A stretch of 64,000 nucleotides of DNA from Methanomicrobia archaeon (GTDB taxonomy: Archaea > Halobacteriota > Bog-38 > Methanoflorentales > Methanoflorentaceae), in contig JACTTZ010000003.1 in the NCBI GenBank assembly GCA_015660915.1, positions 4,479 to 68,478 on the forward strand. The letters run 5' to 3'. Both the position numbers and the translations under genes were made by a program. Positions 36-59,488 of the stretch are shown here, piece by piece. Position 1 is the first letter of the stretch, and each line of letters starts with the position of its first letter. The notes beneath the pieces are model-generated. The model did no database searches, was not told the origin of the DNA, and worked only from the letters and a program-made list of their open reading frames with translations.

Positions 36-1403
36 TTGTGGCCGCCCGATATAACCCCTTACATAGAGTTTGATGAATCAAAAAAACAGATTTCACTGAA
101 ATATCTTCACAGTCCTTTTGACATACATATAAACAAGATATGGAAAGCCCGAATCGATGCAAACTATGAAAGCCCTTCAGTGTATGATTGGCAGAAACAG
201 TGGCACAACATCCGAAATAAGTCTCAATTGCTAACATCTGAGTATATAGAAGCATTTGAAGCGTTGATACTTCAAGACCAAAAAAGATTTAAGAGAAAAG
301 CAAATAAGATCGCGAAGCTCACAGAAGCGATTATTTCCTTTTTAGATGCGGACAGAGAATTTCCGACCAAAATTAATACCGCAATTGACTCAGAAAAGTT
401 CGAAAAAGAACTCAAGGACATCTCGGACTGGGCATCTTTTTGGCGCAGGTTTATCACCCAGCAGCCAACGTCAAGTCAAAATCAGATTAGCTATTTTGAT
501 AGACTTAAATTTGCCATCCAAGACACTTGCAGAGCACTGTTGAGTATGCAAATTGCTTACGACAAAATAGTAGAAGCAACCTTCTCTTACTTCAACGTTT
601 CACGTCTCAAAAATCAGGAAAGAGAGACTTACAACTATTTGTTAAAGATCGTAACTTTTCTTGCCCTAGAACCTGACAAAATAGGTAACATAGCCGCTCC
701 TAAATCAGCGATAAATCAATGGTGGGCTCAGCTGGATAAAAAACGAATTGAAAAGATTAGCGATGTTCTCAACCATCTTGAAAAAGAGCTTCATATGGAA
801 TTTATTAGGCCCTGTTATACAGTTCAACGAGGCGGTCTTCGAGAAACTGCGCTGGGCATGAAGGGGAAAAAATTAGAGCAATTTGATGAAGTTTTTCTCA
901 CGTCTTTGATACAAGGTTTGAGTGATTTAGCTGAAATCGAAATTGATCAGTATTTACTTATGTTCATTGATGATCATAACCGCGTGCAACGGTTTGACGC
1001 GATTTTGCTAACTAAAAGCTGTTTAAGCCACGTAAAAGAATTTAAAGGAACAGCGAAAGAATTCGAATGGGATAATTACAACAAGCCGCGTTTTGTTCCT
1101 TTTCAAGAAGACACGTTACGGTCTCTTCCTGAGGTCACATTCAAAATTGATCCAAGTCTGTTGTTGATGAGGAACATTGTGGTTAATATCTGGCATATAA
1201 CAGAAGTGCGCAGAAGGTTATCTCCAAATGTAGAAGTAGAATCCGCGTGGATGAAAGAATTAGTAGACATTCTTCGTTTGGAATTAAACGACTTTTTAGC
1301 CTCCTTAAAAGCTGAAACTTCCCAAGAAACGTGGAAAGCATACAACGATCTAGTAGAAGCTGTCCTTAGCGGAGATGAATCTTATACATCAGGCTTATTC
1401 TAA
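36..1403 (+). CDS. hypothetical protein on AT-rich island cargo; may start upstream of the window
   Basis: 455-aa ORF with no recognisable catalytic motif. Lys/Glu/Ile-rich and markedly AT-rich compared with core genes. Lies outside (left of) the partial tRNA att-like fragment. Confidence 0.4.
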   Translation: MWPPDITPYIEFDESKKQISLKYLHSPFDIHINKIWKARIDANYESPSVYDWQKQWHNIRNKSQLLTSEYIEAFEALILQDQKRFKRKANKIAKLTEAIISFLDADREFPTKINTAIDSEKFEKELKDISDWASFWRRFITQQPTSSQNQISYFDRLKFAIQDTCRALLSMQIAYDKIVEATFSYFNVSRLKNQERETYNYLLKIVTFLALEPDKIGNIAAPKSAINQWWAQLDKKRIEKISDVLNHLEKELHMEFIRPCYTVQRGGLRETALGMKGKKLEQFDEVFLTSLIQGLSDLAEIEIDQYLLMFIDDHNRVQRFDAILLTKSCLSHVKEFKGTAKEFEWDNYNKPRFVPFQEDTLRSLPEVTFKIDPSLLLMRNIVVNIWHITEVRRRLSPNVEVESAWMKELVDILRLELNDFLASLKAETSQETWKAYNDLVEAVLSGDESYTSGLF

Positions 1404-1603: not shown

Positions 1604-1921
1604 TTAAACGATACCTTTGCAGACGCACCAGATCTCTCTATCTCTAAATTTAGTAGGGTCGAAAGGCTGAGTATCGTGAGTCAAATCGACTCTTTGAAAG
1701 GTGCTTGAGAAAAGCCTTCGAGCCGTTGAGTATTTTCGTTGCGCATACGGATCGGTGTATTTGCCCAGCAGATAATCACGCAGCGCAATCATATTGTCTT
1801 TGCAAAGCTGGCCGCGCGTCAAGTTCCAAAAAGTCTCCGTACACTTATTCATCCACGGAATTGAAGCCTTGCCGATCCTAGCCACACGAAATGCTCTGTA
1901 ACTTTCCAGCTCTTCTTGCAA
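1604..1921 (-). CDS. hypothetical protein; possibly a remnant of an integrase N-terminal (SAM-like core-binding) domain
   Basis: 105-aa ORF next to the tRNA 3' fragment. Weak resemblance (ALRDYL...STARRLF) to N-terminal helices of tyrosine recombinases. Speculative. Confidence 0.2.
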   Translation of the reverse strand: MQEELESYRAFRVARIGKASIPWMNKCTETFWNLTRGQLCKDNMIALRDYLLGKYTDPYAQRKYSTARRLFSSTFQRVDLTHDTQPFDPTKFRDREIWCVCKGIV

Positions 1922-5873: not shown

Positions 5874-6785
5874 CTACTCTTCGGTGAAGAAATCAGAATC
5901 GACTTGTTTTATTTCGTATTCGACGACCTTTGACACCCCGATGCCGTGATCGATCATAAGCTGTGCCAACATATCTCCATTGATAAGAACAACCTTATCC
6001 TCTATTTGCGAGGCATAGTCCGTTGCTTCACGTGAAAAATCAGCCGTAGTAATGAATACGCCTCTGCGTGCGCGCTGACCGTGGAGCGCCCCAACGAACT
6101 TCTGAATCTCCGGTCTGCCGACCGTCGCTTCCCACCTCTTAGCTTGCACGTAGACCACGCCTAACCCCAATGGGTCTTCCTTGATAATGCCATCTATCCC
6201 TTCGTCGCCGCTCTTGCCTAGCGCCTGTCCGGCATCTTTGATTGAGCCGCCATACCCCATCTCAACAAGTAGTTTAACCACTAGTCTCTCAAAAAAGCTA
6301 GGAGAACAGACTTTCAGTTTATCGAGCAGCTCTCTAGCCAAGTTCAGCCTCAGCTCCTGATAGGCATTTTCCATCACCTCAACGGGCGTCTGATCAGGGA
6401 CTTTTGCAGATTCGGCTTCGCCTTCTGTTCTATCTTCTTTTTTCCGCTGCAAGAACCCCACGAATCGCGGATATTGCTTTAAAAACTTGACGTCTATTGT
6501 CTTGGGACTCGCCTTAAGCGCATTTACGCCGTCTTCCGTTATTTTAAAAAAAGAGCGCCTCGTAGAGTCGACCAGCCCTGCTTTTTTTAAGTAAAACAAC
6601 CCCCATCGGACTCTGTTATCAAAAACTTGCTCGTAGCCGCTTGGCAATAGTTCTCTCCTTTCCTGAGTTGATACTTCAAAAACCGAAGCGACGTAGTCGT
6701 ATGCGTCGCTTATCGCGTGCTCTTCCTCATCAGAAGCGTATTGTAAGAGTGGGAGCATTGCTTGTTGGTATTTGGGAATAGCCAT
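5874..6785 (-). CDS. mrr: Mrr-like type IV (modification-dependent) restriction endonuclease
   Basis: N-terminal Mrr_N winged helix (AIPKYQQAMLPLLQ...) plus C-terminal Mrr_cat-like region (GIDGII...VYVQAKRW). Likely true start at the internal Met MAIPKY preceded by GAGGTG. The ORF-track start at 6917 adds a 44-aa Arg-rich extension. Confidence 0.65.
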   Translation of the reverse strand: MAIPKYQQAMLPLLQYASDEEEHAISDAYDYVASVFEVSTQERRELLPSGYEQVFDNRVRWGLFYLKKAGLVDSTRRSFFKITEDGVNALKASPKTIDVKFLKQYPRFVGFLQRKKEDRTEGEAESAKVPDQTPVEVMENAYQELRLNLARELLDKLKVCSPSFFERLVVKLLVEMGYGGSIKDAGQALGKSGDEGIDGIIKEDPLGLGVVYVQAKRWEATVGRPEIQKFVGALHGQRARRGVFITTADFSREATDYASQIEDKVVLINGDMLAQLMIDHGIGVSKVVEYEIKQVDSDFFTEE

Positions 6786-6959
6786 AGCACCTCTTCTCAA
6801 ACATCGTCTCGAAGTATTCTCTGTTCGATATCTCCTAGCTAGATGCAGTAAAACCGTGCGACTGTTAAGACCCCTCAAACTCACAGATTTATTGTGGCGG
6901 TTCTTAAATCGCCGCAAACCAGTTGCTTAGCTGACTTGCTCAGTCTTCTTTGCTTACGT

Positions 6960-7430
6960 TTATTTTTTTTGGCTTGTTTTTTTAGCTTGTGAGATTATCC
7001 GATCGTAATCGCTTTGCGGAATCTGAACCACAGCTTTACCTCTAATAGGGCCAGTCCAGTATGTCTTGTTCGGTAAGAAAGAAAGTCTCAGTATTAAAGG
7101 CTTAAAATCGATGGGTGGTTCAAATACCCTTACAGCTTCCAACCGTAATCTCAACGGAAAAGTTTCATTTGGCGTATTCGGAGGTGTAACGAACAGCTTC
7201 TTGCTGTCTTCGAAGACTGTTGAAGCGATCTCATATTGTGCAACTATCTTCGGTCTTAACGTTTCGCCTGCGCTAATTTCACCTTTCACATAAACTAAGC
7301 ATTGGTCGCCTTTCTTTACTCTGGAGAGCGCATTCTTGTATCGTGCAGAAGCCCCGAGAATATTTGTCTTCTTTGTGATTGTCCAGTTGTCAGAGTTTGT
7401 TACATAGATCCAGTAAGCCATAGCCATCAA
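6960..7430 (-). CDS. EVE (PUA-like) domain protein, putative modified-base reader
   Basis: Starts AYWIYVTNSDNW...; size about 150 aa; PUA-like beta-barrel signature typical of EVE/ASCH proteins. Sits directly beside Mrr. Confidence 0.5.
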   Translation of the reverse strand: MMAMAYWIYVTNSDNWTITKKTNILGASARYKNALSRVKKGDQCLVYVKGEISAGETLRPKIVAQYEIASTVFEDSKKLFVTPPNTPNETFPLRLRLEAVRVFEPPIDFKPLILRLSFLPNKTYWTGPIRGKAVVQIPQSDYDRIISQAKKTSQKK

Positions 7431-8203: not shown

Positions 8204-8449
8204 TCAAGGAGGGCAGCACATAATCGATCTTCTGACGCGGCGAATCTTAATATACCCTGACCGAGCCAATCTGTGAACCCTGTAGTAGAGTTCCTGATAG
8301 GCGGTGTCATAGAACTCTTTGTTGAGATCGGCAAGCGGTACGCACTCTAGATTGTGACCAATAGAAAGCCCCAGAGTGAAACGGGATCTCCTGCAAATCC
8401 GAGCTATGATTTGCTCATCGAGTTCATTGATTTTGTTTTTGTTATTCAC
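8204..8449 (-). CDS. hypothetical small protein (overlaps the primase-helicase start)
   Basis: 81-aa ORF with an 8-nt overlap with the upstream gene, suggesting an operon. Confidence 0.3.
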   Translation of the reverse strand: MNNKNKINELDEQIIARICRRSRFTLGLSIGHNLECVPLADLNKEFYDTAYQELYYRVHRLARSGYIKIRRVRRSIMCCPP

Positions 8450-10580
8450 TTTCGTCCCCTTCTAACAAGAGCGGTTTTCCGCCGGTTAGTTTCAAAAAGA
8501 TCGATGCTGCCGGGCCATTTCCGTTCACGAGCTCGCTGAAGCGGCGCTCGAGGATAATGCGCGACTGTCTATCATCGGCCGAGATGTTATTTTCTTCACA
8601 ATACATCGCGACTGTGAAATTGCAGAGATATTCCGGATCGCGGGGTTCCTTGTAATCGCCATCGGCCAACCATCCGAGCCTTTCGCTTACGTAGCCGTCG
8701 AAGTGTGCCTCCCGGTCGTGGTCGTCTGGTACATGCTTACCACGCGAGCAGTCGGCTATGAGCGTCTGCACTTCCGGATCAGTCTCGGCTAACTTTTTAT
8801 AGAACTGCTCGACGGGGTAGTCGCGCAACCAAGGCTTATCTGCCTTAATGGTCTTGCTCAATTCGGCAGCAAACTCGTTAGTTGTCATGTCGATGGGCCC
8901 AGACCGCGCCTTCTTGAACCCGTTTAGTATCTGCTTGACGTCTTCGACGAGTTCTTTTTCATGTTTTTCACGCTCGCCATTCACCTGAGGGCCTGAAGGC
9001 AATGAACCCATTTTGACTAACTTTTCATGATACCCCTCAGCCGTCATGTAACGAATGTCAAAACCACCTTCATAGCCTTCAGCATTCAGCTCAGCCTTCA
9101 GCGGTGCGGCAACCTCATCGTCATACTCGCCAATATCCCGTAACCGAATCCCTGCCCGCAGATTGCCGCTTTCTTTATGTATGCTCTTAAATCCGAGTTT
9201 CGTAAGATATGAGTAAAAACTCGTCGGCGTCGAGACGTTATGACGCTCCTCGGCGGTCGCGACGTTTCGAAATCGCTCATACAAGGCTTTAGACGTCGAT
9301 TCGGCGCCCGCTTCGACTATGCACTCACTCTCGATAAACGCGGCGAGCGGATTCATAGATTTTTGGTAGTCTTTCCGCGCAGCGTTGACCGAATCCGGCG
9401 GCATAAGGCCGTAGTCTTGCCAATCATAGCACCCCTGCACTAACCACGCAAAAATAGCCTTCTGCGCGTTCTCATCCTCTAAGAGAAATTCTTTGATTTT
9501 CGGGTCGCACTCCTCGAGAGCGATCGGGTTTAAGAACTGCACGATAAAGAACCGATTAAACGACGCATCATCGTCGAAGTCTAATTTCGGCAAGAAATTC
9601 GTCTCGATATAGAATTTTGTGCGCGGATCTATCTTGCGCTGCCTTTTTTCAAACAGGCCTCGGGCACTCTGCGGGTTCCCGCTCGTAACAGCCTTGAGAA
9701 ACGAATCATTGAAGACCATACCCCGAGGCACTTCGCTACACTGCGCGGCACGCACGCCCTCGAGACTAACAAGGTCTGCCCGCGCTCCTCCGGGTTTTTG
9801 TATCGCCTTTGCGAATGTCGATATGTTGACCGGGGCAGCATAATCGCCTAGGGTTTTAAAGATCGCATCTAAAAGCGTTGACTTACGTGCGTTCGCTTCA
9901 CCGTAGAGAACGAACAGGGCCTTGTCTCGATTGATCGCTGTCAATCCTGACCCACAAGCCCGCTGTAAAAACGCGCCTTGCTCGAGTGACAACACTTCGA
10001 TAAGCCGTTCGTACCATTCCGAGCTTACCGTCTCGGGTTCATAGGGCACGGCTGCTATTTTGGTTACCAAGTCGTTGCGATCCGGGTCGCGCAATTCCCG
10101 CGCATTTAAGTCAAGGGTTCCGTTTTGACAGTTGATGAGCCAAGGGTTGGCGTCAAAGTCTTTCGCCATGACTGCGATGCGCGGGTCTGACTGTGCAAGT
10201 TGAATCATCGCGTTTATGCGAAAATTGGAATCACTCTGATACGCCCAGTTCGTCAACCGCTTTTGTGCCGCTTTCCGTTCTTTCGGATCATCCTCATCGA
10301 TGAAACTCGCCTCTGCGTGTATGAGTTTGACCGTTTTTTTGGCCAGTTCTCGAATTTTGAGTGTGACGTCTCGAGGCCATCGCGAGTCATCCCATATGAA
10401 CCACTCACCAATTTCAGCGCAATAACGGATATCATCACCGTACAGAGCAATAAGTCGAAGCGCATTGCCGCCGTCTGTCAAAGGATAACCACACACTACC
10501 CGCACGTCGTTATGTGTGCTGGTTTTGAGGTCAAGCTCAGACAATGTATGCTCACGTATCCCGGGTTGTGATCCGCTCAC
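8442..10580 (-). CDS. plasmid/virus-type replication protein: primase-like N-terminal domain plus D5/SF3-helicase-like NTPase (P4/COG3378 family)
   Basis: N-terminal LTDGGNALRL motif (P4-type primase family). Central Walker-A-like YGEANARKSTLLD with downstream D5_N-like region. 712 aa, typical of MGE primase-helicases. Confidence 0.6.
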   Translation of the reverse strand: MSGSQPGIREHTLSELDLKTSTHNDVRVVCGYPLTDGGNALRLIALYGDDIRYCAEIGEWFIWDDSRWPRDVTLKIRELAKKTVKLIHAEASFIDEDDPKERKAAQKRLTNWAYQSDSNFRINAMIQLAQSDPRIAVMAKDFDANPWLINCQNGTLDLNARELRDPDRNDLVTKIAAVPYEPETVSSEWYERLIEVLSLEQGAFLQRACGSGLTAINRDKALFVLYGEANARKSTLLDAIFKTLGDYAAPVNISTFAKAIQKPGGARADLVSLEGVRAAQCSEVPRGMVFNDSFLKAVTSGNPQSARGLFEKRQRKIDPRTKFYIETNFLPKLDFDDDASFNRFFIVQFLNPIALEECDPKIKEFLLEDENAQKAIFAWLVQGCYDWQDYGLMPPDSVNAARKDYQKSMNPLAAFIESECIVEAGAESTSKALYERFRNVATAEERHNVSTPTSFYSYLTKLGFKSIHKESGNLRAGIRLRDIGEYDDEVAAPLKAELNAEGYEGGFDIRYMTAEGYHEKLVKMGSLPSGPQVNGEREKHEKELVEDVKQILNGFKKARSGPIDMTTNEFAAELSKTIKADKPWLRDYPVEQFYKKLAETDPEVQTLIADCSRGKHVPDDHDREAHFDGYVSERLGWLADGDYKEPRDPEYLCNFTVAMYCEENNISADDRQSRIILERRFSELVNGNGPAASIFLKLTGGKPLLLEGDESE

Positions 10581-11119
10581 GAACGACCTCCGTCGTCGCC
10601 GTCGCCCGAGAGCGAACTCGACTGAGGGTCGTTGCCAAAGCCCAGCAGCTTTCGGAGTTCTTGCATCTCCTTTGCTTTCGTATACTCCACATCAATCGCG
10701 CGCACTTGCGCTATGGTCTCATCAGCGTCTTGGTCACCGAGCGGCTTACGTCGTTGGATCCTGCGGAACAGCGCTAAAAGCAGCCATAACGGTACTTCGT
10801 CAGCGTAGCAATCGTTACGCCACTCAGCCCCAGCGCCGTCTTGATAGTTGATTAGGGCCCGTTCATCGCCGCGTTCAGTCAAATACCAGCTCACATTCTT
10901 ATGCTGCGTGCCAAAGCTCTCGCGCACTCCCTGACGCACGAATATCTGATATTCGTAGAGCAAGTGCTCTGCCGCGTCGTATAGGTCGTTGGACAGCGTG
11001 GCCGTCTCGCCACGTCTCAGCTCTGTCGTGACTTCCTTTAAGCTTCTGTGTGTCTCGCTCTCGTAGTCATCGGCGGGCGTGACATAGCCGCGATTCGGGT
11101 CAAAATATGAACTCGTCAT
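10577..11119 (-). CDS. hypothetical protein
   Basis: ORF translationally coupled (ATGA overlap) to a duplicated 3'-end remnant. Likely ATG start at MTSSYFDP. Confidence 0.35.
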   Translation of the reverse strand: MTSSYFDPNRGYVTPADDYESETHRSLKEVTTELRRGETATLSNDLYDAAEHLLYEYQIFVRQGVRESFGTQHKNVSWYLTERGDERALINYQDGAGAEWRNDCYADEVPLWLLLALFRRIQRRKPLGDQDADETIAQVRAIDVEYTKAKEMQELRKLLGFGNDPQSSSLSGDGDDGGRS

Positions 11120-11169
11120 GCCCTCGCCTCCCACAACCGCTCCATTCTGAATATGAAGCTGTCTAGGTC
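11117..11169. repeat. about 53-bp direct repeat copy 1 (gene-junction cassette: 3' end ...F(I/F)(F/G)RMERLWEAR(A/S)* + ATGA start overlap)
   Basis: About 90% identical to 12004-12055. Confidence 0.8.
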
Positions 11170-11183
11170 GTCGTGAATGTCGG

Positions 11184-12005
11184 TCATGCTCGATGCTCCC
11201 CGTTCGCTATTGCCCATAATTTTTCTCTGTCAACACGTTCAGCCCGAAGTACGCCATAAAAAACAGACGTGTCGTAAAACTCGAAAAGAGCAGCTTCGTA
11301 AAGCTCCCGGAGTGTATAAGGAGGAAGGGCGTCGAGTTCCACCTGCATGAGCTGACCGTAGTCTCGAATGAAGCCGGCTGCACGTGAATCGCCTTTTTTA
11401 CCCGGGTTTACCGGTAAATTATATTCACTTACCTGATCCTCATTGAGCGCAATGCGTTGCACATGGTCAAAGCAGCTGCACCGCTTTTTGAAGTCTCTCA
11501 ATATGTCGACGCCGCTCGGATCGAAATCACCAGCATAAATGAGCACGGCTTGACGGTCATTGTTCGTAACATCCTCGATGATCACATCGACATACGTTTG
11601 CGACGAGTACCCACGAAGCGGGGCGATCGCAACACCGTATGTTTCAAACCACTGCTTCAACTGCGGCACCATGCCGTACTTTTCAACGCCGAGATAGACC
11701 GAGTACTCCTGCCTTTCATCGCGGTTACGGCAGTAGCTCCTAGTGAGCGATTTCAAAGCATCTTGCGGGCTACTGAATCCGCCAAAGCGGTGAATATCGC
11801 GTGTCTGGTCAACTAGCTGCGGAAACTGTCCGTTTCGACGAAGAGCCGCGGTGACCCTACTGAGTCTTTTATACGCGTACTCACTGTTCGGTATCGCGCC
11901 TTCAACGACCAAGCGATAGAACAGTTGTCGGAGAGAGACGCCGGTGTCATAAGAACGCACTATTTCAGCAGCTCGGGTGATGACGCGAGGCCATGAAATG
12001 CTCAT
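11184..12005 (-). CDS. Spo11/Topo VI-A-like 'Mini-A'-type protein (winged helix with Tyr + Toprim)
   Basis: wH motif SLRQLFYRLV (5Y-CAP-like R..Y). Toprim glutamate LGVEKYGMV and DxD motif IYAGDFDPSGVDI. 273 aa, shorter than Topo VI-A. Confidence 0.45.
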   Translation of the reverse strand: MSISWPRVITRAAEIVRSYDTGVSLRQLFYRLVVEGAIPNSEYAYKRLSRVTAALRRNGQFPQLVDQTRDIHRFGGFSSPQDALKSLTRSYCRNRDERQEYSVYLGVEKYGMVPQLKQWFETYGVAIAPLRGYSSQTYVDVIIEDVTNNDRQAVLIYAGDFDPSGVDILRDFKKRCSCFDHVQRIALNEDQVSEYNLPVNPGKKGDSRAAGFIRDYGQLMQVELDALPPYTLRELYEAALFEFYDTSVFYGVLRAERVDREKLWAIANGEHRA

Positions 12006-12226
12006 GACCTCGCCTCCCACAACCGCTCCATTCTGCCTATGAAGCTTTCTAGGTCATAAACGAAGGGTGCTAGTACGAGGTGGTATTCGTCGTCTTCGGT
12101 TTCGACGCGTTCAAGCTCGTAACACAGGTCGCCGTAGAGCTCCTGTGCCCCTATCAAAATCAAAAGAGGGCGCTCTGCATCAAAGCGCTTATCAAAGCGC
12201 AGCCCGTCACTGCTCACCGCGTGCAC
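12002..12226 (-). CDS. hypothetical small protein
   Basis: 74-aa ORF; its stop overlaps the downstream start (ATGA). Its last 16 codons are duplicated at 11120-11170. Confidence 0.35.
   Translation of the reverse strand: MHAVSSDGLRFDKRFDAERPLLILIGAQELYGDLCYELERVETEDDEYHLVLAPFVYDLESFIGRMERLWEARS
12004..12055. repeat. direct repeat copy 2 (see 11117-11169)
   Basis: Covers the 3' end of gene 12002-12226 and the start of 11184-12005. Confidence 0.8.
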
Positions 12227-12785: not shown

Positions 12786-13418
12786 CTACGGGTTCGCATT
12801 CTCTGTCGGTCGACGTGTCTTATGCAATGAGAACTCCACAGCCACCGAATCTTCTGCACCTTTCCGAGGCTTTTCCCCACGCTCCACCCGATCAAAAAGT
12901 GCCATAATGTCGCCGTCTTGATCCTTGTAAAGCACCCACACATATGTTAGTGACAAGGGTTCATCGATCGGAAGGCCATCCTCCACCTTCTGAACCGTCG
13001 CAATCCATTTTGAAACGACAGAATTGCAGACATAGCACCAGCTTGATCCAGATTTTAATTGGCTGTACGAAAAACCGATAAGGGGGTCGCTGCTGTGAAT
13101 ACCGTCAGCTTGTACACTAAGACCGAGGCTCTTAGCCACGTCGTCAGCGTGGAGAGAATCCCATACGATTCTGATGAACCTGATGGTAGATTTCCGCACA
13201 GGCCAACGCATAGGATCATGTGTAAGCACCCAAAAAGCAACGATTTCGCCGACCGAATACTCAGGCCAATTGCTTGGCCCGCCTCGACCTTTTCCTTCGC
13301 TCTTGTGGTAACGACGAGGCGCGGTAATGACCCCTTCGTGGGCAAGCTTTCTGATTGTGCTGGAAGCTAAACCAACTCCGTATTTGTGTAAATGAGCCTG
13401 AAGTTCGTCGACTTGCAC
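12786..13418 (-). CDS. hypothetical protein with N-terminal HTH-like segment
   Basis: LASSTIRKLAHEGVI helix-turn-helix-like stretch; the rest is unknown. Confidence 0.3.
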   Translation of the reverse strand: MQVDELQAHLHKYGVGLASSTIRKLAHEGVITAPRRYHKSEGKGRGGPSNWPEYSVGEIVAFWVLTHDPMRWPVRKSTIRFIRIVWDSLHADDVAKSLGLSVQADGIHSSDPLIGFSYSQLKSGSSWCYVCNSVVSKWIATVQKVEDGLPIDEPLSLTYVWVLYKDQDGDIMALFDRVERGEKPRKGAEDSVAVEFSLHKTRRPTENANP

Positions 13419-13836: not shown

Positions 13837-15393
13837 TCATCCTTGTCGCTGCTGTTTTTCTCTAAATGCCTGCACAAGTTTGGCTGAGCGTTCCCTGTCG
13901 CCTTTAATTGCTTCTTGCGACACCGCCTTAGCAGGCTCTATTACGTTTTTGTTTATCGATTTGACCAGATCGGCCGTATCTTCATACCAATAGGTATCGA
14001 GAATCATCGTTTCAAGTTTCTTTCGCAAGCCAATCAGCACCATATGCTCTCCCTTCGCTTTTTCTGAGGCGACTCGGATGGGCAGTATAGGCACAGCAGC
14101 GCCCGTATCAGCGATGTGTTGCACCTCGATAGGCACCATCTCAGGGTCAGTAAAGTCAGCGATAACGAACTGCGCCATACGTGCAAGAGTAGATACTGTT
14201 TCGATAAACGTTTGGCTCTCCGGTTTTTCAAAGTCGAATACTACAGGCACATAGTCATGATGACGAAGTTCGTCTCGGACTGCGTCGAGCGTCGGCTTTT
14301 GCTCATCAGTGAAGCGGCCGAGGAGAAGCACGACTTTTGAGGTCATAATATCAATAACATTTCGCAGCTTTTCGTATTTCGTTAGCAAATAGATGAACTG
14401 CGCGACCTCAAGGTCGTCAACGGTGATCACGGGCTCTCGTTCGTATATATTGCTGATGTTCAAGTTTGACTGATCTTTTGGCTTACCTTGAAGGTTCCAC
14501 ACCGAGCTACCGTACACGGCACATCCAGCAAAAATGGCATCCGCGATGGTCGTTTCTACAAAAATTGCCCTCGTGAGATTGGCGTCTGAAAGGTCGGTAC
14601 CTGTCAGATCCGCATTTGAAAGATCGGCAGAATAGAGGGTAGCGTGAGAGAGGTTAGCGTGGGAGAGGACGGCTTTGTAGAGGTGGGCTTCTCGCAAGGT
14701 GGCGCCAGAGAGGTTGGCGTCGGTGAGCTTGGCCTTATAGAGGTGGGCGCGGGTGAGGTCGGCTAACGAGAGGTCGGCGCCCCTCAGATCCGCATTTGAA
14801 AGATATGCGTCGACAAGAATAGCGCCAGAGAGGTTAGCGCCGGAGAGGTGGGCAAAGGAGAGGTGGGCCTCGCTGAGATTAGGCCTCACCTCAGAGTACT
14901 TATCACGCCAACTGTTCCACTCGTCAACGCCTTGTTTCAGAATTTCAAGGTGCGATTCATTTGCCGTAGAAGATCTCACTGCGAGCGTCAGGCCGGCGTC
15001 GGTGAGGTCTGCACCCGTCAGATCCGCATTTGTAATGTTAGCGTTAGAGAGGTCGGCGCCGCTGAGGTCGGCGTTAGAGAGGTCGGCGCCAGAGAGCTCG
15101 GCGTTAGAGAGGTCGGCGCCAGAGAGGTCGGCGCCAGAGAGGTTAGCGTCGGTGAGCTCGGCGTGGGAGAGGTTAGCGCCAGAGAGGTTAGCGCCAGAGA
15201 GGTCGGCGTCGGTGAGGTCGGCGTAGAAGAGGTCGGCTCCGATGAGGTTGGCTTCGTAGAGGTCGGCTTCTGGGAGGTGGGCGCCGCTAAGATCGGGCCT
15301 CACGTCATGGTACTCTTCACGCCAACTGTTCCAGACTTTAAAGCCTTGCTTTAGGATTTCGAGATGTGATTCATTGACCATCGAAGATCTCAC
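13837..15393 (-). CDS. pentapeptide-repeat protein with duplicated N-terminal module and a C-terminal non-repeat alpha/beta domain
   Basis: Long runs of A(D/N)LSGA(N/D)L pentapeptides. Two copies of the module ESHLEILKQG..WNSWR..Y.(D/E)VRP(D/N)LS.AHL. The C-terminal 190 aa are non-repetitive (KVVLLLGRFTDEQ...VPVVFDFEKPE...FVIADFTDPE). Confidence 0.7.
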   Translation of the reverse strand: MRSSMVNESHLEILKQGFKVWNSWREEYHDVRPDLSGAHLPEADLYEANLIGADLFYADLTDADLSGANLSGANLSHAELTDANLSGADLSGADLSNAELSGADLSNADLSGADLSNANITNADLTGADLTDAGLTLAVRSSTANESHLEILKQGVDEWNSWRDKYSEVRPNLSEAHLSFAHLSGANLSGAILVDAYLSNADLRGADLSLADLTRAHLYKAKLTDANLSGATLREAHLYKAVLSHANLSHATLYSADLSNADLTGTDLSDANLTRAIFVETTIADAIFAGCAVYGSSVWNLQGKPKDQSNLNISNIYEREPVITVDDLEVAQFIYLLTKYEKLRNVIDIMTSKVVLLLGRFTDEQKPTLDAVRDELRHHDYVPVVFDFEKPESQTFIETVSTLARMAQFVIADFTDPEMVPIEVQHIADTGAAVPILPIRVASEKAKGEHMVLIGLRKKLETMILDTYWYEDTADLVKSINKNVIEPAKAVSQEAIKGDRERSAKLVQAFREKQQRQG

Positions 15394-15581: not shown

Positions 15582-15720
15582 TTATCTGGAAATTATGAGC
15601 TTAACGTTATTCCAATATTGCATATACACATCATATGCGTGCTCAGGCAGCGGATGCTTATAGTGCTTCCAATCGATACCGCTGACGCCGTGCGTCGTAC
15701 ACGCTCTGACCGACAGAATC
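15582..15720 (-). pseudogene. tyrosine integrase C-terminal remnant (...THGVSGIDWKHYKHPLPEHAYDVYMQYWNNVKL*), no start codon
   Basis: Strong protein/DNA similarity to the C-terminus of the intact integrase 20218-21045. Confidence 0.5.
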
Positions 15721-16030: not shown

Positions 16031-16264
16031 TTAGTTGTCTAGGCGGGTATTGTGCCAATATTTTATAAACCCGTAATAAACGTGCTCAGGCAAAGGATGC
16101 TTGTCATGCTTCCAATCTATACCGCTCACGCCATGCGTCATTATGTAAGCACGATTTGACTGATCCCAGCCTATTGCGTCACCGCCCTGCTCGCAAAACT
16201 TGCGCAGATCGCCAAGCACGAAATGCCCCTTAAACTGTGACATCGGAATCTTCTGCCGTTTCAT
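16031..16264 (-). pseudogene. tyrosine integrase C-terminal remnant (box II + catalytic Tyr region)
   Basis: GDLRKFCEQ...WDQSN..Y.(L/M)THGVSGIDWKH.KHPLPEHVY matches the intact integrase C-terminus. Confidence 0.6.
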
Positions 16265-16448
16265 CTATATCCCCAAAAAGCCATGTCGGAAAACAGCTTC
16301 ATCGTCTTTTTTTCTTCGATCGACTCCCCGCCAAAGATGGCGTATTGGAAAGGATTATTCGTTAAGTTCAACAAGAGTCGGTTGCGAACCTTCATGCTGA
16401 ACTGGCAAACCACCAACGACAAGGATCTTTGCCTTAGACGACGCATCT

Positions 16449-18406: not shown

Positions 18407-18609
18407 GAAATGTTCTTCTTAGATCGTATATAGATGCCGAACCTGTGCTCAGGCAGACAGATGTTTACAGCGCGGTAAGGGTTCCAATATGGAGCGTTTC
18501 GCGCTTCTTTTTTCTTGGTTGCACGCCTACGCTATATCCGCACGTGCTTTCATCTAAGTTATCGGTCAGGGCACGGATCGTCTCACGCTAACCGCACATC
18601 CGCCCAATA

Positions 18610-18861
18610 CTAGATATACGTATCATAGACGTTCTCCGGCAATGGGTGTTTGTAGTGCTTCCAATCGATGCCGCTCACCCCGTGCGTCAGGATGTCAGCG
18701 CGATTTGGTTGGATCCACTCGATAATACCAATACTGTTCACGAAACTACACAGATCGTTGGGTAGCGCTTCTGTCAGCGGTAGGATCTGGCAGGGCAGTG
18801 CCGCAGTTTGCGTGCGTACGAGGCACATCGAATGCCACCATCCCCACATTTTTTTCATCAA
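18610..18861 (-). pseudogene. tyrosine integrase C-terminal remnant
   Basis: ...ILTHGVSGIDWKHYKHPLPENVYDTYI* matches the intact integrase. The upstream part is unrelated. Confidence 0.55.
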
Positions 18862-19078
18862 GTCTCAAAAGAAGCCCCTGAACGAAGGAAATTCAAAAAA
18901 GAGATGATGATCGGGGAGTAACTAACAGGCTAGTCTAAACGTAATAACTAGATTTCAAGGTGCCACCTTAATCCAGCCGTGCCCTTATCGCGCGGCTAAA
19001 ATGCTCATTCAAGCGCTTTGATGGGGGGAAACCCTATATCGCGGAACCTTTCATAACCGTGTAAAGGAGGTAAGTAGA

Positions 19079-20217: not shown

Positions 20218-21045
20218 CTAAGCGTCGAATCTCACATCTTTCCAGTACTTCATGTATACGTCATACACGTTCTCAGGCAGCGGGTGCTTGTAAAATCGCC
20301 AATCGACACCTGAAACGCCGTGAGTGAGTACATAGTTCTTATTCGATTGATCCCACAGCAGAATATCGGATTGTTGCTCACAGAATTTTCTTAGATCTCC
20401 GTTTACTATACGGGCCCCGCTGTTCAACAATCGAACGCCAGTGTGCTTGAGCCACTCCTGAAAGGATAGTTGCTGAAAAACAAATTCATCATCAGGCCGA
20501 TCTTCCAACGCGGGAATCATCGCCTCTACAACTTGCGGATGCAGGGGGCAATAATGCTGCATTCGGATTTTGTCTTGCCACGGAAGCACGTCGACAGCAG
20601 GCTTCTTCGTTTTCACAGCTTCCCTGAACTGGCCGACGGTTAACCGTGCTATTGTTGCCAAAGGCCGCTGCCCAGTGAACGCACCAAACAACGTCAGTGC
20701 TTTGTAATTAAGGCGGTGATAGTCATCTATCCGCCCGACACTATAGGAGAGTTCAATCGCCTTCAGCACATTCTCAACGTCTTCTTTCGTAATGATTCTC
20801 GAAGTGACATGCTTACGCGTTTTGAGCGTTTTAGGCATTTCCAAAAAGAGTTCAAATGCCTGAAAGCGCATGTCGAACGTCGTCTTCGCGAGATACTTCA
20901 AAAGACCTTTGGTGAAATAGAGCACTTTGCGTTTTGAATAGACGCAAGTGTATTTTGTCAGAGTGAAATTGCGCACTGCGTCTATCGTTTCCTTGCTAAC
21001 AGTGCCGTGCGTATGCTTCCAGACGATTTCAGCCGCCTTATTCAT
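20218..21045 (-). CDS. int: tyrosine recombinase / phage-type integrase (intact copy)
   Basis: Catalytic signature in order: R (TGQRPLAT), H..LRKF (box II), HGVSGVDWRFY (His/Trp + Tyr nucleophile). Three co-oriented C-terminal remnants lie nearby. Confidence 0.7.
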   Translation of the reverse strand: MNKAAEIVWKHTHGTVSKETIDAVRNFTLTKYTCVYSKRKVLYFTKGLLKYLAKTTFDMRFQAFELFLEMPKTLKTRKHVTSRIITKEDVENVLKAIELSYSVGRIDDYHRLNYKALTLFGAFTGQRPLATIARLTVGQFREAVKTKKPAVDVLPWQDKIRMQHYCPLHPQVVEAMIPALEDRPDDEFVFQQLSFQEWLKHTGVRLLNSGARIVNGDLRKFCEQQSDILLWDQSNKNYVLTHGVSGVDWRFYKHPLPENVYDVYMKYWKDVRFDA

Positions 21046-21271
21046 CCAGTTGCTGCTCTTCCGGTCAAGGCCTGCTTTACGCCATTTTTTATAACCAATA
21101 AGCTGGTTTCGTGAGAACGTTAATTGAAGTGAGCTAATGTCTTGCCCGTTTACTGATTCAAGTGGAACTCTAATCCGTGCTTTTTCACTCGTTAAAATGG
21201 TTTGAAATAAGCTTTGAGCATCAGAAATGTCTTGCTTTGTCGAAAGAGCACCAAAAAGAGGAGGAGAGCTC

Positions 21272-52387: not shown

Positions 52388-52471
52388 TGCACCGACCGGG
52401 ATTCGAACCCGGGTTGTGGGCTTTCTTCACGCGTTGGAAGGCCCAAGTCATAACCGCTAGACCATCGGTGC
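52388..52471 (-). tRNA. tRNA-Gly(UCC) with a 12-nt intron 3' of the anticodon
   Basis: Manual fold: acceptor GCACCGA/TCGGTGC, anticodon arm TGGGC-CUUCCAA-GCCCA, T-arm CCGGG-TTCGAAT-CCCGG. TATA-like ATTAATATA about 30 nt upstream. Confidence 0.7.
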
Positions 52472-59066: not shown

Positions 59067-59372
59067 CAAAATGTGTGGAGATGCGAACATCAGAGAAGTT
59101 GAAGCAATTCGGTTTTTCGCTTTTCATAGGCCTCGCTAGTGATAAAACCTTTCTCACGTAACACATCGAGCTTTTCTATTTGCTCGATTATGTCCTCTTT
59201 CATGCTTTGATGCTTCTCTTCGTTAGCCATCGTGTTTCGGATAGCCTTTATGAACGATAAACTTTATGTATTTTCACACGTAATAATATATTCTTTTTTG
59301 CTTGCACCCTTCACGTAGACGTTAACCCAAGAAGTGGTACACGCGTAGCGTGTAAAAGCAGTACTTTGAACA

Positions 59373-59468
59373 AGCCGCCGGAGGGATTTGAACCCTCGAT
59401 CTGCTGATACTTCTTTGAGCGGTGCTCAAATACGAATCAGCCGCTATGCCGAGCTTAGCCACGGCGGC
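59373..59468 (-). tRNA. tRNA-Thr(CGU) with a 22-nt intron (hairpin UUUGAGC...GCUCAAA) after position 37
   Basis: Manual fold: acceptor GCCGCCG/CGGCGGC, D-stem GCTA/TAGC, anticodon stem GCTGA/TCAGC with loop UUCGUAA, T-arm GAGGG-TTCAAAT-CCCTC. Confidence 0.6.
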
Positions 59469-59488
59469 CACGCATAGTATGTTTAGAC

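Follow-up and report, generated by a model that had tools for sequence, protein, structure and literature searches.

An archaeal member of the Topo Mini-A family, placed as a cassette in a translationally coupled replication operon on an integration island

The DNA analysed here, called the window throughout, is a 64,000-nt stretch of contig JACTTZ010000003.1 from a Methanomicrobia archaeon (Halobacteriota), and our subject is a minus-strand gene in it encoding a small protein of the Topo Mini-A type, related to the A subunit of DNA topoisomerase VI (Topo VI-A, Top6A) and to Spo11. The gene belongs to a minus-strand cluster with the order orf210, orf113, orf74, Mini-A, a 23-codon mini-ORF, orf180, a gene for a 712-aa SF3 helicase and two small open reading frames (ORFs) (Table 1). 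Every junction from orf74 to the helicase gene features an ATGA overlap, including orf74/Mini-A, Mini-A/mini-ORF and mini-ORF/orf180. The Mini-A reading frame, running from 12005 to 11184, is intact and specifies 273 amino acids (aa) from an ATG; an alternative in-frame GTG at 12020 would lead to a product of 278 aa. Translation probably begins at the ATG at 12005, which forms an ATGA overlap with the stop of the preceding ORF and is situated 7 nt past a GGAGG motif, i.e. at the usual distance. SLRQLFYRLV, LGVEKYGMV and IYAGDFDPSGVDI are all found in the encoded protein, in that order, and its parts can be listed as a shortened 5Y-CAP/winged-helix segment (R26, Y30), a Toprim domain (E108, D160xD162xxG165) and a C-terminal T2BI box (QVELDAL). 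In annotations, 'Topo Mini-A (Topo VI-A/Spo11-like) protein' is to be preferred to 'hypothetical protein'.

The Topo Mini-A family and its defining features have been described by Takahashi et al. (2020, NAR Genom Bioinform, PMC7671362), who listed Listeria, Pseudomonas and Salmonella among the host genera of Mini-A carriers. By its sequence, the window protein is an intact, archaeal and new member of this family. It matches phrog_6247 ('DNA topoisomerase' in the PHROGs collection) over its full length (residues 13-266, E 3.8e-45), and tblastn against phage genomes returned 77 records with about 29-33% identity across about 90% of the protein, including Salmonella phage SPN19, Xylella phages Sano and Salvo, Pseudomonas phages JG054 and PAJD-1 and Listeria phage LWP01. 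For the Mini-As of SPN19, Sano, Salvo, JG054 and LWP01, E values range from 1e-24 to 8e-30, and a gene annotated as 'Topo Mini-A' on the uncultured-archaeon plasmid LC711082 is matched with an E value of 3e-16. Scans with Pfam and NCBIfam gave no domain over cut-off, and no ATPase domain is present in the 273 aa. The initial annotation of this DNA, made from the letters alone, had proposed a stand-alone Topo VI-A/Spo11-like protein of the Mini-A type; the full-length PHROG match, the similarity to published carriers and the structural neighbours described below bear this out.

A structure was predicted with AlphaFold2 from 31 homologues and is confident (mean pLDDT 84.4). When it was compared with the PDB by Foldseek, ranks 1 to 6 were all occupied by Topo VI-A chains (Methanocaldococcus jannaschii 1d3y and Topo VI-DNA complexes of M. 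mazei) with probabilities of 0.99-1.00 and up to 291 aligned columns covering both domains, while Spo11 followed at rank 13 and JetD at rank 27. The comparison with Topo VI-A, Spo11 and JetD that had been suggested as a check thus places Topo VI-A first. The global TM-score between the model and Topo VI-A is low (0.39), indicating a domain orientation unlike that of the crystal forms. In the model, a strand (residues 101-107) precedes E108, another (152-158) precedes D160xD162, and R26-Y30 lie within a helix (25-34); the positions of the acidic residues after these strands are the canonical Toprim sites. The similarity to JetD is confined to the DxD loop. JetD_C and DUF2399 are matched faintly by Pfam around this loop (12.5 bits at a cut-off of 22 and 13.4 bits at a cut-off of 23.4), a JetD3 match in PADLOC (E 5e-4) comprises 34 residues only, and altogether the JetD-type matches span only 24-47 residues.

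HMMER against PDB sequences, run as single-sequence phmmer and as hmmsearch with profiles A1 and A3, returned no Top6A or Spo11 match; the sole matches, all by chance, were a designed repeat protein, a ciliary protein and the Rep protein of adeno-associated virus (AAV). Pfam families TP6A_N (PF04406) and Topo VI-A Toprim (PF21180) did not match Mini-A either. For direct comparison, segments of Spo11 (8urq_A, residues 111-303) and of Sulfolobus shibatae Top6A (2zbk_A) were pulled from the PDB with a Spo11 fragment as query. An R(i)/Y(i+4) spacing is common to RQLFY of Mini-A, RDIFY of Spo11 (with Y135) and RDLYY of S. shibatae Top6A, the counterparts of the Toprim motifs are VEKE and VEKD as well as DADPYG, so that all share the forms R-x-x-F/Y-Y, VEK and DxDPxG, and the distance from the glutamate to DxD is 52 residues in both Mini-A and S. 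shibatae Top6A. HHalign of Mini-A against Spo11 alone, a thin target, was not significant (E 0.013, probability 3%), and neither was the alignment with a six-sequence Top6A Toprim profile (E 0.18); in both, E and DxD nevertheless stood in the expected register. In these non-significant alignments E108 is paired with Spo11 E233 (and with VEK of Top6A) and D160/D162 with D288/D290. A large homology search with a 64-aa Toprim query yielded four short fragments only, and a proper Top6A profile was not obtained. As the HMMER and HHalign links are not significant, homology to Topo VI-A/Spo11 is argued for by the match of the predicted fold, the PHROG annotation and the published analysis.

The residues in question are strictly conserved. 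Across 31 close homologues, no variation is seen at R26, Q27, Y30, R31, E108, K109, D160, D162, S164, G165 and Q221-V-E223, and when the Mini-As of phages, an Asgard plasmid and a Streptomyces plasmid are added, R26, Q27, Y30, E108, K109, D160, D162, S164, G165, E223, A226 and L227 still do not vary. The proposed order of a 5Y-CAP tyrosine motif followed by the Toprim glutamate and DxD is therefore no accidental resemblance: Y30 aligns in spacing with Y135 of Spo11 and the tyrosine of Top6A and never varies, and the same invariance holds for the putative Mg-binding residues E108, D160 and D162. At the tryptophan position of the T2BI box, for which xWELDAL has been given as the Mini-A signature (PMC7671362), the clade of the window protein has valine (QVELDAL), phage and Streptomyces members have tryptophan and the Asgard plasmid has cysteine; the count of valine is biased, as genome loci were collected by a pattern containing QVELDAL. 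The ratio of nonsynonymous to synonymous substitutions (dN/dS) between the window gene and its 78%-identical counterpart in L087, one of the related elements collected here, amounts to 0.198, pointing at purifying selection.

The arrangement around the gene suggests how it got there. A direct repeat of 63 nt (D5, 89% identity) flanks the Mini-A ORF exactly, and the end of the mini-ORF (DLDSFIFRMERLWEARA before the stop) echoes the C-terminus of orf74 (DLESFIGRMERLWEARS before the stop), which identifies the mini-ORF as a relic of that C-terminus as judged from sequence. In L087, the same layout is present with a more diverged 23-codon relay ORF. The closest homologues of orf180 (80-82% identity) reside in L090/L091, where the gene order is helix-turn-helix protein (HTH), ParB, orf70, orf179, D5 helicase and large terminase without Mini-A, and where orf70, which is 54% identical to orf74, directly overlaps orf179; L096 has an arrangement similar to that of L090. 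Because the orf70/orf179 junction of L090 is uninterrupted and aligns with the downstream repeat copy, Mini-A evidently entered an existing coupled junction as a cassette, duplicating 63 nt of it. The relic ORF was presumably retained since it carries the translation signals of orf180. The 63-nt repeat was also considered as an attachment (att) site or as a target of Mini-A, and this idea was dropped because the uninterrupted junction of L090 reveals it as duplicated coding sequence. A decayed copy was noted in L058, a Halobacteriota contig, in which positions 1894-2256 encode the first 100 or so Mini-A residues (77% identity) before unrelated sequence begins; an orf180-helicase pair follows 5.6 kb downstream of this truncated gene.

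Mini-A had been described as lying next to a primase-helicase. An SF3 helicase is indeed encoded one gene downstream in the same operon (Pfam D5_N 1.1e-33, TIGR01613 3e-46); the primase part of this statement fell away, as family scans detected no primase domain in the 712-aa protein and phrog_1156 is matched at profile positions 354-834 of 855 only, which is the helicase part of primase-helicase fusions. The C-terminal extension of the helicase (about 230 aa, residues about 480-712, window positions 8442-9140) has no family match; residues 551-615 are common to the helicases of L058 and L090. We also considered orf180 as a hidden 'Mini-B' or primase and rejected both, since its family is narrow and archaeal only, occurs without Mini-A and has no fold match.

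The family is large. A profile search against 1.84 billion cluster representatives (50% identity) retrieved 9,590 sequences at E <= 1e-3, 5,474 at E <= 1e-10 and 1,341 at E <= 1e-30. The subclade containing the window protein is mostly bacterial and highly conserved, with 50-59% identity across phyla, and the window Mini-A shares a mean of 50% identity with this bacterial crown and 26% with the Mini-A of the Asgard plasmid. In a simple and rather crude neighbour-joining analysis with pattern-biased sampling, the four archaeal Mini-As were monophyletic in 200 of 200 bootstraps, while the related bacterial sequences were monophyletic without the archaeal ones in 0 of 200. These observations fit a scenario in which a family of archaeal elements took up a Mini-A of bacterial type.

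Other Mini-A genes occur in varied company. In L085, a 65%-identical Mini-A overlaps a downstream gene for a 704-aa PrimPol-helicase (phrog_1829, E 2.5e-92), and both in L085 and in L086 Mini-A overlaps genes on both sides. L085 comprises 14,266 nt with a terminal direct repeat of 127 nt and is thus probably complete and circular, with a length of about 14.1 kb. Its large terminase (E 2.9e-33) is distributed over two overlapping ORFs, and no capsid or portal gene was recognisable; L085 could be satellite-like or a highly divergent archaeal virus. In L086, a gene for an HNH endonuclease with 45-nt tandem repeats (880-1827) is located about 1.2 kb upstream of the 64%-identical Mini-A. For bacteria, up to three nearest ORFs on each side of Mini-A were inspected in 47 loci, 249 ORFs in total. 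Among them are 18 tyrosine recombinases (Phage_integrase), 6 serine recombinases (Resolvase), 6 Prim-Pol, 7 AAA_25, 5 DUF3631 and 2 DUF3987 proteins, one each of D5_N and DnaB and a few terminase, portal and capsid proteins. The neighbours of Mini-A in the window show no sequence conservation in these bacterial loci, apart from a weak similarity of the helicase in L041 and L077. In viral contigs from IMG/VR, a scan with the single protein found nothing, while an alignment-based scan gave 19 loci; in 18 such contigs, Mini-A has genes for serine integrases, DNA polymerases, helicases and small and large terminases around it. Phages Sano and SPN19 carry Mini-A at the end of the early/nucleotide-metabolism block. 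No recurrent GHKL ATPase was found near Mini-A in the window operon, the 47 bacterial loci or the 18 viral contigs, and no recurrent family of SMC or Jet proteins in the bacterial and viral loci.

On plasmids of Streptomyces and related actinomycetes (PLSDB), Mini-A tends to reside near the end of the record, at a median distance of 10.8 kb or 11% of the length, and 20 of 23 genes fall into the outer half (Kolmogorov-Smirnov p 2e-4, for records that are not independent). Examples are L088 (NZ_CP029542.1), L089 (NZ_CP109378.1) and L007 (NZ_CP101652.1); three checked records are linear and have Mini-A at a distance of 0.5-4.3 kb from their terminus; in one of them, a gene for a 'helicase associated domain' protein is adjacent. 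A 5'-linking tyrosine enzyme beside protein-capped telomeres is possibly worth a look.

The left third of the window hosts the island on which the gene resides. Integrases of related elements match the window at five places in tblastn, among them one near-complete gene, three 3'-end fragments and an N-terminal fragment (Table 1). As these integrase genes and fragments belong to one element family, the stretch between about 1.6 and 21.1 kb has the appearance of an archaeal hotspot for integration, filled with successive decayed copies of related elements, in agreement with the earlier view that Mini-A is encoded on an island. The same window contains genes for aRF1, TYW1 and ArgRS, and its archaeal host stems from metagenomes of peat. 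No terminase gene survives in the 64 kb. A tRNA-linked att site was sought and discarded, as there is no tRNA near the island; two minus-strand 'tRNA-???' calls by ARAGORN with four-base anticodon loops (52388-52471 and 59372-59469) could be false positives, or else archaeal tRNAs that are unusual or contain an intron. A 518-aa pentapeptide-repeat protein, whose non-repeat C-terminal domain of about 200 aa has no Pfam match, is encoded at positions 13837-15393, with an integrase fragment on one side and the Mini-A operon on the other.

Table 1. Features of the Mini-A gene, its operon and the surrounding island (positions in the window).
Feature	Position	Strand	Basis or remarks
Topo Mini-A coding sequence, 273 aa	11184..12005	minus	ORF list, phrog_6247, AlphaFold model, Foldseek
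N-terminal portion of the Mini-A coding sequence	11721..12005	minus	
R26-Q-L-F-Y30 (R-x-x-F/Y-Y); Y30, predicted catalytic tyrosine	11916..11930	minus	invariance; spacing as in Spo11/Top6A
Toprim domain, residues about 100-200	11406..11708	minus	
E108 (VEK), Toprim acidic residue	11682..11684	minus	invariance; HHalign pairing
D160-F-D162-P-S-G165 (DxDxxG), predicted Mg2+-binding loop	11511..11528	minus	invariance; spacing
C-terminal T2BI box Q221-V-E-L-D-A-L227, variant of the Mini-A signature xWELDAL	11325..11345	minus	
orf210, first gene of the same-strand cluster	12786..13418	minus	weak similarity to a 274-aa protein of L090
orf74, ATGA-coupled to Mini-A	12002..12226	minus	homologues in L087 (48% identity) and L090/L091 (54%)
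63-nt junction repeat, upstream copy	11993..12055	minus	last 16 codons of orf74, Shine-Dalgarno, ATGA, first Mini-A codons
63-nt junction repeat, downstream copy	11107..11169	minus	aligns with the uninterrupted orf70/orf179 junction of L090
23-codon relay mini-ORF (MTDIHDDLDSFIFRMERLWEARA, then stop)	11116..11187	minus	start overlaps Mini-A stop, stop overlaps orf180 start
orf180, element-specific	10577..11119	minus	no GHKL 'Mini-B', no recognisable primase
SF3 helicase, 712 aa (D5_N, P4-family primase C-terminal region, Pox_D5)	8442..10580	minus	family matches
Tyrosine integrase, near-complete	20227..21144	minus	residues 69-381 of 383 of the L092 integrase, 47% identity, E 8e-95
Three integrase 3'-end (C-terminal) fragments	15591-15695, 16040-16312, 18580-18912	minus	repeats D3/D4 (56-104 nt)
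orf105, N-terminal integrase fragment	1604..1921	minus	tblastn with L094 and L096 integrases, match 1918-1733
Cap4-nuclease/nSTAND NTPase, C-terminal part	36-1403		left edge
Type IIG/Eco57I-like methylase-endonuclease, 936 aa	2913-5723		
Mrr	5874-6917		
EVE-domain protein	6960-7430		

Taking the context together with the conserved residues, we consider it somewhat better than an even bet (a probability of roughly 0.55) that Mini-A is an accessory enzyme which introduces a protein-linked nick or double-strand break into the replicating DNA of its own element. By analogy with Topo VI-A/Spo11, a homodimer would be the active form, with Mg2+ bound by the acidic residues of Toprim; attack of Y30 on a phosphodiester of the DNA would then leave a 5'-phosphotyrosyl link and a free 3'-OH in a reversible reaction. 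Driven strand passage would not be expected without an ATPase partner. From the gene's setting, the break may serve as a swivel or as a source of 3'-OH during replication; alternatively, it may help to separate the products of replication, by unlinking or resolution, ahead of packaging or segregation. Such a function would be accessory and not essential because sister elements have the same operon without the gene. Earlier suggestions that the protein is DNA-cleaving or serves plasmid maintenance or replication are consistent with the residues and fit the operon context, respectively.

Several points weigh against this reading. The operon with an orf74-like gene, orf180 and the helicase exists without Mini-A in L090/L091, L092 and L096, and in bacterial loci Mini-A has no constant place with respect to replicases. 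Defence genes (type IIG restriction-modification (RM), Mrr, EVE and Cap4-nSTAND) share the island and flank the replication operon. Sequence-profile links to Topo VI-A never reached significance with the thin profiles used, and the literature holds no assay of any Mini-A, so that cleavage, dimerisation and reversibility are all carried over from the larger relatives.

The main competitor, which we consider improbable but worth keeping in sight, is a conflict nuclease, i.e. a DNase serving defence, anti-defence or superinfection exclusion by cutting host or competitor DNA after the model of the Toprim nucleases JetD/MksG, OLD/Gabija or AriB of PARIS. It would agree with the defence genes just named and with the presence/absence polymorphism and cassette-like gain that are typical of accessory fitness genes. 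The JetD-like, conflict-related role that the initial annotation had raised as a possibility is not supported: the resemblance extends over 24-47 residues and stays below threshold (12.5 against 22 bits), and neither JetABC/SMC nor OLD-type ATPases recur as neighbours. Mini-A is moreover translationally coupled within replication operons, outside the block of defence genes, and its invariant tyrosine is suggestive of covalent, reversible chemistry. JetD and OLD nucleases are not known to use such chemistry. A selfish, homing-type gene, whose nuclease would spread by cutting Mini-A-less junctions of related elements, could account for the precise pair of filled and empty sites with its duplicated junction, for the patchy distribution inside the element family and for a gene nested in a bacterial clade, which implies cross-domain transfer. 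Nonetheless, we rank it lowest: a duplication of 63 nt is the wrong footprint for homing by double-strand-break repair, a dN/dS of 0.2 and the downstream coupling that two diverged elements have maintained via the relay ORF suggest that the element profits from the gene, and both examined genera of Casjensviridae (Chivirus and Sanovirus) carry Mini-A.

Rather unlikely, too, is an enzyme for recombination or resolution that cuts and rejoins specific sites or branched DNA and thereby resolves dimers or concatemers or aids integration and excision, acting together with the recombinase of the element or shortly ahead of packaging. Tyrosine or serine recombinases adjoin Mini-A in up to 24 of the 47 bacterial loci, in about 10 of them as a serine recombinase immediately upstream on the same strand; terminases are neighbours in several viral contigs, large terminases are present in the archaeal L085 and L090, and a 5'-linked covalent intermediate could in principle be religated to a new partner. 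Such elements, however, already carry dedicated recombinases, adjacency says little where a small element has few genes, no integrase is annotated in the examined regions of carrier phages such as Sano and SPN19, and no conserved repeat or site accompanies the gene, given that the 63-nt repeat is a duplicated coding junction. Slightly less probable still is a genuine type II topoisomerase with an unrecognised partner, be it a non-canonical 'Mini-B' or Top6B of the host. Its nearest fold is that of a type IIB A subunit, and the genes for aRF1, TYW1 and ArgRS mark the host as an archaeon. Archaea of this group usually carry Topo VI. Against a partner stand the lack of any nearby GHKL or transducer protein in the window and of a recurrent one in the 47 bacterial and 18 viral loci, and orf180, which lacks a GHKL fold and occurs without Mini-A. 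The Mini-A clade is also mostly bacterial, and Top6B is rare in bacteria. Takahashi et al. left the question of a 'Mini-B' open, and they noted that the N-terminal 5Y-CAP segment which binds Top6B is missing from Mini-A (PMC7671362).

The accessory replication role outlined above can be extended, in a bolder form that we offer as a tentative and on balance doubtful proposal, to a self-sufficient, ATP-independent 5'-phosphotyrosyl breakage-rejoining enzyme that spreads as a plug-in cassette among unrelated mobile elements, from one replication module to another, and crosses between bacteria and archaea. If this were true, it would constitute a new route to start, swivel or resolve replication, with a function resembling that of HUH Rep proteins or resolvases on a Spo11 fold, and the filled junctions of the window and L087 and the empty ones of L090 and L096 would provide a natural isogenic pair.

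Apart from Mini-A, no stand-alone relative of Spo11/Topo VI-A is known, and whether an A subunit cuts DNA without a B subunit bears on the origin of Spo11-type enzymes and on the replication of small elements. The locus contributes a Mini-A gene that is intact and under selection within a defined operon, close relatives of the element that have or lack the cassette, and an insertion by junction duplication that preserved coupling. New is the home of a Mini-A nested in a bacterial clade, namely an integration hotspot of an archaeon of the Halobacteriota, as well as a subfamily that is large and appears to have moved from bacterial into archaeal elements. The Mini-A family itself had already been described; the filled/empty pair, the preserved relay ORF, the bacterial affinity and the family size are the additions made here.

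Among known systems, Topo Mini-A/phrog_6247 is the closest. The window protein shares with it a size of about 270-300 aa, the shortened 5Y-CAP and Toprim domains, RxxF/YY, E, DxDxxG and the ELDAL core of the C-terminal box, the lack of a B subunit, carriage by mobile elements and sequence similarity to reference members; it differs in the valine of its T2BI box, where published members have tryptophan, and in being a cassette in an orf74-orf180-SF3 helicase operon. Topo VI-A/Spo11 (PDB 1d3y, 2zbk, 9o0g, 8urq) are the best structural neighbours, agree in motif forms and spacing and would share the 5'-phosphotyrosyl chemistry, whereas Mini-A falls short of them by about 100 residues, is devoid of the N-terminal segment that binds the B subunit and has no Top6B/Top6BL partner. 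Topo VIII, a plasmid-borne fused type IIB topoisomerase with the box RVELNAM (PMC7671362), has the V-E-L core in common with QVELDAL of the window clade but features an N-terminally fused GHKL ATPase and a transducer, neither of which is present in Mini-A. JetD/MksG of Wadjet is set apart by its sub-threshold matches, by the absence of JetABC partners, by its distant rank in Foldseek and by the invariant tyrosine that Mini-A keeps at the Top6A position. Mini-A has been proposed as the replication protein of skuldviruses (bioRxiv 10.1101/2021.07.29.453957). Because sister elements share the operon without Mini-A, an obligatory initiator role of this type cannot hold in the present element family. 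The HUH Rep nickase encoded with an SF3 helicase in rolling-circle replicons offers a functional analogy only: in both cases a 5'-linking tyrosine enzyme would be paired with such a helicase, while the folds are unrelated and the partner operon of Mini-A also exists without it.

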